This document shows, one piece after another, positions 38,719 through 39,797 of a stretch of 64,000 nucleotides of DNA (positions are counted from its first letter, which is position 1; the number at the start of each line of letters is the position of its first letter). Both the position numbers and the translations under genes were made by a program. The stretch comes from Escherichia coli. Its GTDB lineage: Bacteria > Pseudomonadota > Gammaproteobacteria > Enterobacterales > Enterobacteriaceae. Under the pieces are notes generated by a model. It was not told the DNA's origin. It searched no databases and worked only from the letters and a program-made list of their open reading frames with translations. The DNA is taken from assembly GCF_001677475.2 (NCBI RefSeq), contig NZ_CP015229.1; one strand, 5' to 3'.

Positions 38719-39797
38719 GCACCGTGACTATTACCGATTTAGCGCGTGAAAACGTCCGCAACCTGACGCCGTATCAGTCGGCGCGTCGTCTGGGCGGTAA
38801 TGGCGACGTCTGGCTGAACGCCAACGAATATCCCACAGCCGTGGAGTTTCAGCTTACTCAGCAAACGCTCAACCGCTACCCGGAATGTCAGCCGAAAGCG
38901 GTGATTGAAAATTACGCGCAATATGCAGGCGTAAAACCGGAACAGGTGCTGGTCAGTCGTGGCGCGGACGAAGGTATTGAACTGCTGATTCGCGCTTTTT
39001 GCGAACCGGGTAAAGACGCCATCCTCTACTGCCCGCCAACGTACGGCATGTACAGCGTCAGCGCCGAAACCATTGGCGTCGAGTGCCGCACAGTGCCGAC
39101 GCTGGACAACTGGCAACTGGACTTGCAGGGCATTTCCGACAAGCTGGACGGCGTAAAAGTGGTCTATGTTTGCAGCCCCAACAACCCGACAGGGCAACTG
39201 ATCAATCCGCAGGATTTTCGCACTCTGCTGGAGCTAACCCGCGGAAAAGCCATTGTGGTTGCCGATGAAGCCTATATCGAGTTTTGCCCGCAGGCATCGC
39301 TGGCTGGCTGGCTGGCTGGCTGGCTGGCGGAATATCCGCACCTGGCTATTTTACGCACACTGTCGAAAGCTTTTGCTCTGGCGGGGCTTCGTTGCGGATT
39401 TACGCTGGCAAACGAAGAAGTCATCAACCTGCTGATGAAAGTGATCGCCCCCTACCCGCTCTCGACGCCGGTTGCCGACATTGCGGCCCAGGCGTTAAGC
39501 CCGCAGGGGATCGTCGCCATGCGCGAACGGGTGGCGCAAATTATTGCAGAACGCGAATACCTGATTGCCGCACTGAAAGAAATCTCCTGCGTGGAGCAGG
39601 TTTTTGACTCTGAAACCAACTATATTCTGGCGCGCTTTAAAGCCTCCAGTGCAGTGTTTAAATCTTTGTGGGATCAGGGCATTATCTTACGTGATCAGAA
39701 TAAACAACCCTCTTTAAGCGGCTGCCTGCGAATTACCGTCGGAACCCGTGAAGAAAGCCAGCGCGTCATTGACGCCTTACGTGCGGAGCAAGTTTGA
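38715..39797 (+). CDS. hisC: Histidinol-phosphate aminotransferase (carries an in-frame GWLA duplication from a (CTGG)7 tract)
   Basis: 360 aa; ...[27 protein letters not shown]...; class II aminotransferase. Confidence 0.95.
39300..39327. repeat. Tetranucleotide tandem repeat (CTGG)7 inside hisC
   Basis: CTGGCTGGCTGGCTGGCTGGCTGGCTGG read directly from the sequence. Confidence 0.95.

Follow-up and report, generated by a model that had tools for sequence, protein, structure and literature searches.

A long, perfect tetranucleotide repeat in the middle of a housekeeping gene raises the question of how it arose, whether the encoded enzyme still works, and whether the repeat is a product of slippage or a switch that is kept by selection. 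The repeat considered here is located in hisC, the gene for histidinol-phosphate aminotransferase, in an Escherichia coli window, i.e. the whole stretch of 64,000 nucleotides that was analysed. Direct reading of the window revealed a perfect, uninterrupted (CTGG)7 at positions 39300-39327 of the plus strand, which TRF called as 39299-39328 with a period of 4, 7.5 copies and 100% matches. The tract is in frame within a hisC open reading frame of 360 codons (38715-39797, plus strand), the normal length of the protein being 356 amino acids, and the extra 12 nt duplicate the residues GWLA or, equivalently, LAGW. The exact read, the TRF call and the open reading frame together bear out the preliminary description of this DNA, in which the tract and the in-frame GWLA duplication had been reported. 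In dinucleotide-preserving shuffles of the window as few as three CTGG units are expected only 0.02 times, and a run of seven is far beyond chance. Indeed, (CTGG)7 is the longest microsatellite of the 64-kb window, where the runner-up among the tetranucleotide repeats has 3 units. The second-longest microsatellite, (AAAAT)4 at positions 55962-55981, belongs to an AT-rich region of O-antigen genes.

The normal state of the tract is four units. (CTGG)4 with identical flanks is present in the strains K-12, PCN033 and E06, where it codes for L196-A-G-W-L-A201 (K-12 numbering), and the K-12 sequence confirmed that four units and a single GWLA are found in this strain, as had been stated in the preliminary description. 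The complete RefSeq genomes of E. coli were searched by BLAST with a query consisting of (CTGG)7 flanked by 40 nt on each side, for which a genome with four units can reach at most 88.9% identity. None of 5,423 complete genomes contained more than four units, all of them being at or under this ceiling. A second BLAST census of complete RefSeq genomes used a synthetic query with one unit, so that genomes above the four-unit ceiling have fewer than four units. This applied to only one of 5,417 genomes, namely that of laboratory strain OV2, where the tract consists of three units and hisC is annotated as 'frameshifted'. Four units are thus near-universal in E. coli, with the qualification that the census is blind to alleles that are one unit away from four and carry at least four SNPs in the flanks; divergent flanks were encountered in about 1% of the census genomes (61 records). 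Representative genomes of E. albertii, the cryptic Escherichia species E1V33 and E. coli also have four units, and a scan of metagenome contigs detected the four-unit allele on 97 contigs, which served as the control, and none with five or more units. Since the same count is shared by more than 5,400 genomes, E. albertii, cryptic Escherichia and metagenome contigs, four units is, judged from this distribution, the ancestral and strongly maintained state. In one divergent E. coli genome, NZ_AP042682.1 (locus L005), Leu196 is encoded by TTA and not by CTG, which leaves three pure units in frame and the protein unchanged. The use of TTA for Leu196 in some divergent E. coli lineages should naturally stabilise the hisC tract.

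The seven-unit allele itself is already present in the databases. Public data contain the exact HisC protein of 360 residues on 14-20 contigs, which come from several independent accessions, and the separate assembly of an SRA run (L003) matches the window at every position over 7,083 bp, including the tract. These findings bear on the concern, voiced in the preliminary description, that the seven units might be a sequencing or assembly artefact. Some technologies can miscount repeats, and the allele is found in no complete RefSeq genome. However, a tract of 28 nt fits easily inside one read, and the seven-unit allele is also present in a second lineage that is represented by two or three more assemblies. 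Together with the contigs and the SRA assembly, this effectively refutes the artefact reading, to which we attach practically no probability. The view that all relatives might be invariant at seven units does not hold either, as there are only four in the nearest sister haplotype. This haplotype, from assembly GCA_016118575.1 (L007/L008), encodes a HisC of 356 amino acids between the same HisD and HisB proteins. Over positions 34414-43864 of the window (9,451 bp) the two sequences differ solely by 12 bases of the tract, which are missing from the sister haplotype and may be placed at positions 39299-39310 of the plus strand, the placement of the gap inside the tract being arbitrary. Since the sister haplotypes differ by these 12 bases alone, the expansion is more recent than the last SNP in 9.4 kb and, by this comparison, the seven-unit allele is very young. 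The HisD and HisB proteins of the window occur on a larger number of contigs (64-65 index blocks) than does the 360-residue HisC.

With respect to its wider relationships, the his operon of the window represents a distinct haplotype, for which the best match among the complete RefSeq genomes of E. coli was 97.4% identical over the operon. No member of the seven-unit lineage was found among these complete genomes. The O-antigen cluster of the window (about 44000-61000) belongs to the O36 family, as defined by wzx/wzy, and strain E06 is the closest relative with a complete genome when judged by this cluster, with 97.8% identity over 25 kb. In E06 (locus L006), gmd is interrupted by an ISKpn26 insertion, wzy is frameshifted and wzzB contains an internal stop.

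Seven units were observed on two unrelated backgrounds. The his operon of the second lineage (L009/L010) matches that of strain SE15 throughout 7,401 bp, apart from the same 12 nt. Relative to the operon of the window, it differs at 265 positions (L009 compared). Because this SE15-type operon is identical to that of SE15 bar the 12 nt and is 265 sites away from the window, the +12 nt event took place at least twice, independently and recently. The comparison also bears on the idea that recombination brought in the longer tract from a strain or species that normally carries such a tract. In E. coli, the his-rfb region is established as a hotspot of recombination, and the operon of the window is distinct from, and at most 97.4% identical to, that of any complete genome, which would be compatible with an import. 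However, no SNPs separate the sequences with seven and four units, neither over the 9.4 kb of the sister haplotypes nor over the 7.4 kb of the second lineage, and a donor with more than four units was absent from the 5,423 genomes, the species representatives and the metagenome contigs. An import is effectively refuted because the flanks are identical, and its likelihood is close to nil.

To place these alleles in a series, the HisC products of tracts with 0-13 units were predicted for the window and K-12 backgrounds and looked up by exact match among about 15 billion proteins. Products of four units were recorded on at least 1,000 contigs for each of the two backgrounds, the product of seven units in a K-12-type protein background on 2-3 contigs, the 234-residue product of three units on 17-20 contigs, and the 296-residue product of five units in the K-12 background on 22 contigs. 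None were recorded for 0, 1, 2, 6, 8, 9, 10, 11 or 13 units in this exact look-up, which covered the window and/or K-12 background. The predicted frameshift products that were found are thus exactly equal to real database proteins. Cluster neighbours and a search of representatives added a six-unit product (P0169), a two-unit product (P0041) and more three- and five-unit products on other backgrounds. At the DNA level, pure tracts of 2, 3, 5, 6 and 7 units were confirmed, all with identical immediate flanks. Tracts that deviate from four units were located on eight distinct hisC haplotypes, besides the haplotypes with four units. Three units were confirmed by DNA on at least three backgrounds and five units on two, and for each of these two alleles another two backgrounds are known from proteins alone. 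The preliminary description had regarded the tract as a site of slipped-strand mispairing, and this view is supported by the existence of the 2-, 3-, 5-, 6- and 7-unit alleles with identical flanks and by the occurrence of 3, 5 and 7 units on several different hisC backgrounds. A contraction to one unit, which would be in frame and give a HisC of 352 amino acids that has lost GWLA, was absent on both backgrounds from the about 15 billion proteins. The explanation may be that the deletion is not tolerated or that a slip from four units to one is mechanistically rare.

Some of the shorter and longer alleles can be traced to particular strains. In OV2 (Edinburgh; NZ_CP195020.1, locus L004, positions 941-952) the tract is (CTGG)3, which causes a -4 frameshift, and the gene is annotated as a pseudogene; the same allele is common to two other assemblies with a K-12 background (L015, L019). 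OV2 is a his auxotroph, and (CTGG)3 probably explains its classical 'his' marker at the molecular level. (CTGG)5 in an otherwise exact K-12 hisC was found in 22 SRA assemblies, including L011-L014 (SRR9076272, SRR13494116, SRR13494230 and SRR13494202), and in each of these 22 the contig that contains hisC is about 31.5 kb long. They probably represent one unrecognised his- laboratory lineage or experimental-evolution series.

The consequences of a change in unit number depend on the reading frame. As had been expected in the preliminary description, a change by three units keeps the frame, whereas changes by ±1 or ±2 units do not. The latter lead to products of 234-298 amino acids that end before, or otherwise lack, the catalytic Lys214. 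Among the products predicted for 0-13 units, all out-of-frame alleles shift upstream of the codon for this Schiff-base lysine, which is Lys218 in the protein of the window (39366-39368, plus strand, downstream of the tract), and end after 230-304 residues. The out-of-frame alleles are nulls because the catalytic lysine is lost. On the K-12 background these null alleles evidently belong to laboratory strains, namely OV2 and the 22 assemblies with five units, and on natural backgrounds those looked up as DNA were present on 1-3 contigs each, compared to 14-20 contigs for the in-frame seven-unit allele of the window clone. Moreover, +3 has two origins and +2 and -2 have one origin each, even though +3 should be mutationally rarer. 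If selection acts as a filter on the reading frame, +3 is expected to be at least as frequent as ±2. This pattern of alleles gives a weak but directional indication that the 360-residue HisC works. It should be noted that persistence alone is no proof of activity, since null alleles, too, are maintained on about 20 contigs each, mostly on K-12 laboratory backgrounds.

We therefore turn to the protein itself. The 360-residue product aligned end to end with E. coli HisC in PDB entry 1FG3, with 99% identity and an E-value of 6e-236, and the only differences are the insertion of the four residues GWLA between Gly198 and Trp199, and the substitution P287S (K-12 numbering). Like the other members of the 1FG3/1GEW family (PF00155, class I/II PLP aminotransferases), the protein has all invariant catalytic residues: Asp184, Tyr187, Ser213-Lys214, Arg322 and Arg335 are present and represent invariant columns in an alignment of 119 sequences. 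The codon for Tyr187, a PLP contact in HisC structures, is TAT at 39273-39275 of the plus strand, eight codons upstream of the tract. The duplication lies inside the segment C-P-Q-A-(S/T)-L-(A/T)-G-W-L, which in the Enterobacteriaceae never varies in length and hardly varies in sequence. In a set of 119 diverse homologues, Tyr187 and the Schiff-base lysine are spaced by 26 residues in 104 (87%; range 25-33). The spacing is 30 in the present protein, a value that, in this alignment, departs from the norm yet is inside the range of the family. In the rare homologues with longer spacing, the extra residues are located upstream of the C-P-Q-A...G-W-L segment.

AlphaFold2 models of the 356- and 360-residue proteins, built from the same alignment of 119 sequences, had mean pLDDT values of 96.8 and 95.8, respectively. 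Residues 191-200 were the sole internal difference between the models, with a pLDDT of 98 in the 356-residue protein versus 77 in the 360-residue protein. In the latter, the first copy of GWLA is modelled as an additional loop, the native position being occupied by the second, and a Foldseek comparison of this model with 1FG3 gave a TM of 0.97-0.98 and an rmsd of 1.2 Å. According to the models, the HisC fold can plausibly absorb the insertion, but such models do not predict activity. The insertion was also considered as an alpha-helix that is longer by one turn, and this idea was rejected, since both models show short helical turns and loops at this place.

Altogether, we consider it likely that the seven-unit tract is a recent slippage allele at a recurrent site, which is probably neutral or mildly deleterious and encodes an enzyme that is still at least partly functional. 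The codon choice CTG GCT GGC TGG CTG GCG at the conserved residues L-A-G-W-L-A would have created the tract as a by-product, and four units are kept throughout Escherichia. In an ancestor of the clone, replication slippage, through slipped-strand mispairing or, equivalently, unequal sister-strand exchange, would then have added three units. The additional 12 bp duplicate GWLA in an ordered linker that runs from the strand with Asp184 and Tyr187 to the strand that leads to Ser213-Lys214. Most slips (±1, ±2) would frameshift hisC before the catalytic lysine and create His auxotrophs that survive as singletons or in laboratory strains, whereas the product of the in-frame +3 event may pass the selective filter and can spread clonally. 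We infer slipped-strand mispairing as the molecular mechanism because the changes comprise whole units, the flanks are unchanged, the events recur on unrelated backgrounds, and the motif is CTGG. A path from four over five and six to seven units, through auxotrophic intermediates, is a possible alternative to a single +3 step. Slippage that is stabilised by hairpins was rejected: either strand, with or without flanks, folds no better than shuffles (z about 0 or positive). Simple register slippage would suffice because hairpins are no better than the shuffled controls.

As in other microsatellites, a tract of seven units is expected to be less stable than one of four. If slippage rises with the number of units, the seven-unit tract would yield His- variants with six or eight units more often than a tract of four units. 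Products with six or eight units on the window background were absent from the about 15 billion proteins, a collection with only about 20 assemblies of the clone. A literature search for published data on rate versus length for tetranucleotide tracts in E. coli returned general microsatellite papers only.

The main competing view concerns the function of the allele and leaves its origin by slippage unchanged. It holds that the in-frame duplication inactivates or destabilises HisC, and that the clone is a natural His auxotroph that persists where its niche supplies histidine. The constancy of the LAGWL segment in enterobacterial HisC, the 26-residue spacing that is kept in 87% of the diverse homologues, with the rare longer ones being extended upstream, and the drop of the local pLDDT from 98 in the wild-type control to 77 are all in line with this view, as is the fact that frameshift nulls likewise reach about 20 contigs. 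However, the global fold is preserved in the model, and the +3 event, having arisen twice, is at least as common as the easier ±2 events with one occurrence each, which is indicative of a frame filter and thus of retained function. Furthermore, each natural null is known as a singleton or doubleton, as opposed to the 14-20 assemblies, from several accessions, that represent the clone. The other his genes of the clone are all intact, which would also argue against auxotrophy, though the allele is too young for gene decay to be informative. In view of this balance, natural auxotrophy is the less probable state of the clone, but it has to be taken seriously.

It is far less credible that selection has made the expanded tract a contingency locus, through which histidine biosynthesis is switched on and off reversibly at high frequency to the benefit of the clone. 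Tetranucleotide tracts are known to drive phase variation elsewhere, for example in Haemophilus (PMC2651432), CTGG is a proven hotspot motif of E. coli, and the tract exceeds all other microsatellites of the window in length. The contingency loci of Haemophilus influenzae indeed resemble the hisC tract in that a perfect repeat within an open reading frame switches the frame when its unit number changes. However, they often have well above 10 units, are located near the 5' end of surface-structure or restriction-modification genes, vary among siblings and are maintained by selection. The hisC tract, in contrast, lies mid-gene in a housekeeping enzyme, a core biosynthetic aminotransferase and not a surface, host-interaction or restriction-modification protein. 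It is almost invariant at four units across the genus, in more than 5,400 genomes, and the seven-unit form is confined to two tiny and very recent clones. There is thus no sign that a long tract is kept across strains by selection. Among the about 20 assemblies of the window clone, no switching has been seen. Moreover, derivatives with six or eight units on the window background are not on record, and neither strand shows a special ability to form hairpins. A role as a contingency locus is therefore highly improbable. The more specific proposal that the seven-unit hisC is phase-variable, slipping by ±1 unit at 1e-5 or higher and giving rise to a reversible subpopulation of auxotrophs that is favoured by selection, is very unlikely. 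If true, it would represent a contingency locus in core amino-acid biosynthesis, and the benefit could be, for example, a saving of metabolic cost or cross-feeding in the gut.

The recurrent-slippage allele that we favour has its closest counterpart in lacI. The (CTGG)3 tract of lacI was the first spontaneous hotspot to be sequenced, and it gains or loses one unit at >1e-6 per generation (Farabaugh, Schmeissner, Hofer & Miller 1978); this rate is that of lacI, and the hisC tract is known from sequences alone. The two tracts share the CTGG motif, the host E. coli, a location in a coding region, changes by whole units with unchanged flanks, and frameshift products that are null. Indeed, the hisC tract displays the typical features of a slippage hotspot, i.e. 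a perfect head-to-tail repeat, alleles that differ by whole units, and recurrent independent events. The systems differ in that lacI starts from three units, whereas hisC starts from four and has seven here. In addition, the lacI alleles are selected laboratory mutants, while those of hisC are a natural polymorphism in public genomes, where clones have become fixed for an in-frame +3 allele. The searchable literature yielded no previous account of the hisC tract as a hotspot.

Short repeats in his biosynthetic genes that underlie revertible histidine auxotrophy are also known from Salmonella. The Ames tester alleles hisC3076 and hisD3052 are frameshifts at mono- or dinucleotide runs that were induced or selected in the laboratory. 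Unlike these, the hisC unit described here is a tetranucleotide and the allele is in frame.

These comparisons imply that no new mechanism or kind of system is revealed by the hisC tract. Its significance is that a housekeeping gene contains a natural equivalent of the textbook slippage hotspot (CTGG)n of lacI, with traces that are visible in public genomes as a complete series of 2-7 units, repeated identical +12 nt events and survival that depends on the reading frame. The locus thereby provides a clean natural example of how mutation bias and purifying selection decide which alleles are seen. The rare clone with seven units, in which histidine auxotrophy could be unusually frequent, is a ready-made natural reporter of tetranucleotide instability, and this property matters for typing and for growth phenotypes on minimal medium.

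The surroundings of hisC are those of a complete his operon, all on the plus strand. The leader peptide gene hisL is located at 36313-36363, with the His codon run CACCATCAT at 36337-36355; these coordinates were carried over from L007, the DNA of which is identical. hisG (36509-37408) and hisD (37414-38718) are intact, and so are hisB, hisH, hisA, hisF and hisIE (39797-43554), the DNA of which is identical to that of the four-unit sister haplotype. The stop codon of hisC and the start codon of hisB overlap in the sequence TGATG at 39795-39799, an arrangement that appears compatible with translational coupling between hisC and hisB. Because of this overlap, and in agreement with the established polarity of the his operon, a premature stop in hisC may lower the expression of hisB, with polar effects presumably extending over hisB-I.

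Lastly, the database searches uncovered several other HisC variants. P0049, from Salmonella enterica serovar Agona, is a HisC of 441 amino acids in which about 82 residues (approximately 46-127) are duplicated internally in tandem; this in-frame duplication, found in another species, far exceeds that of GWLA in size. P0038 contains a frameshift just 3' of the hisC tract (...LAEYPHRYFTH...). P0168 is an enterobacterial HisC of 268 amino acids in which approximately residues 107-190 are missing. Its junction coincides with an F-C-P motif that is repeated, pointing to a deletion between short direct repeats.
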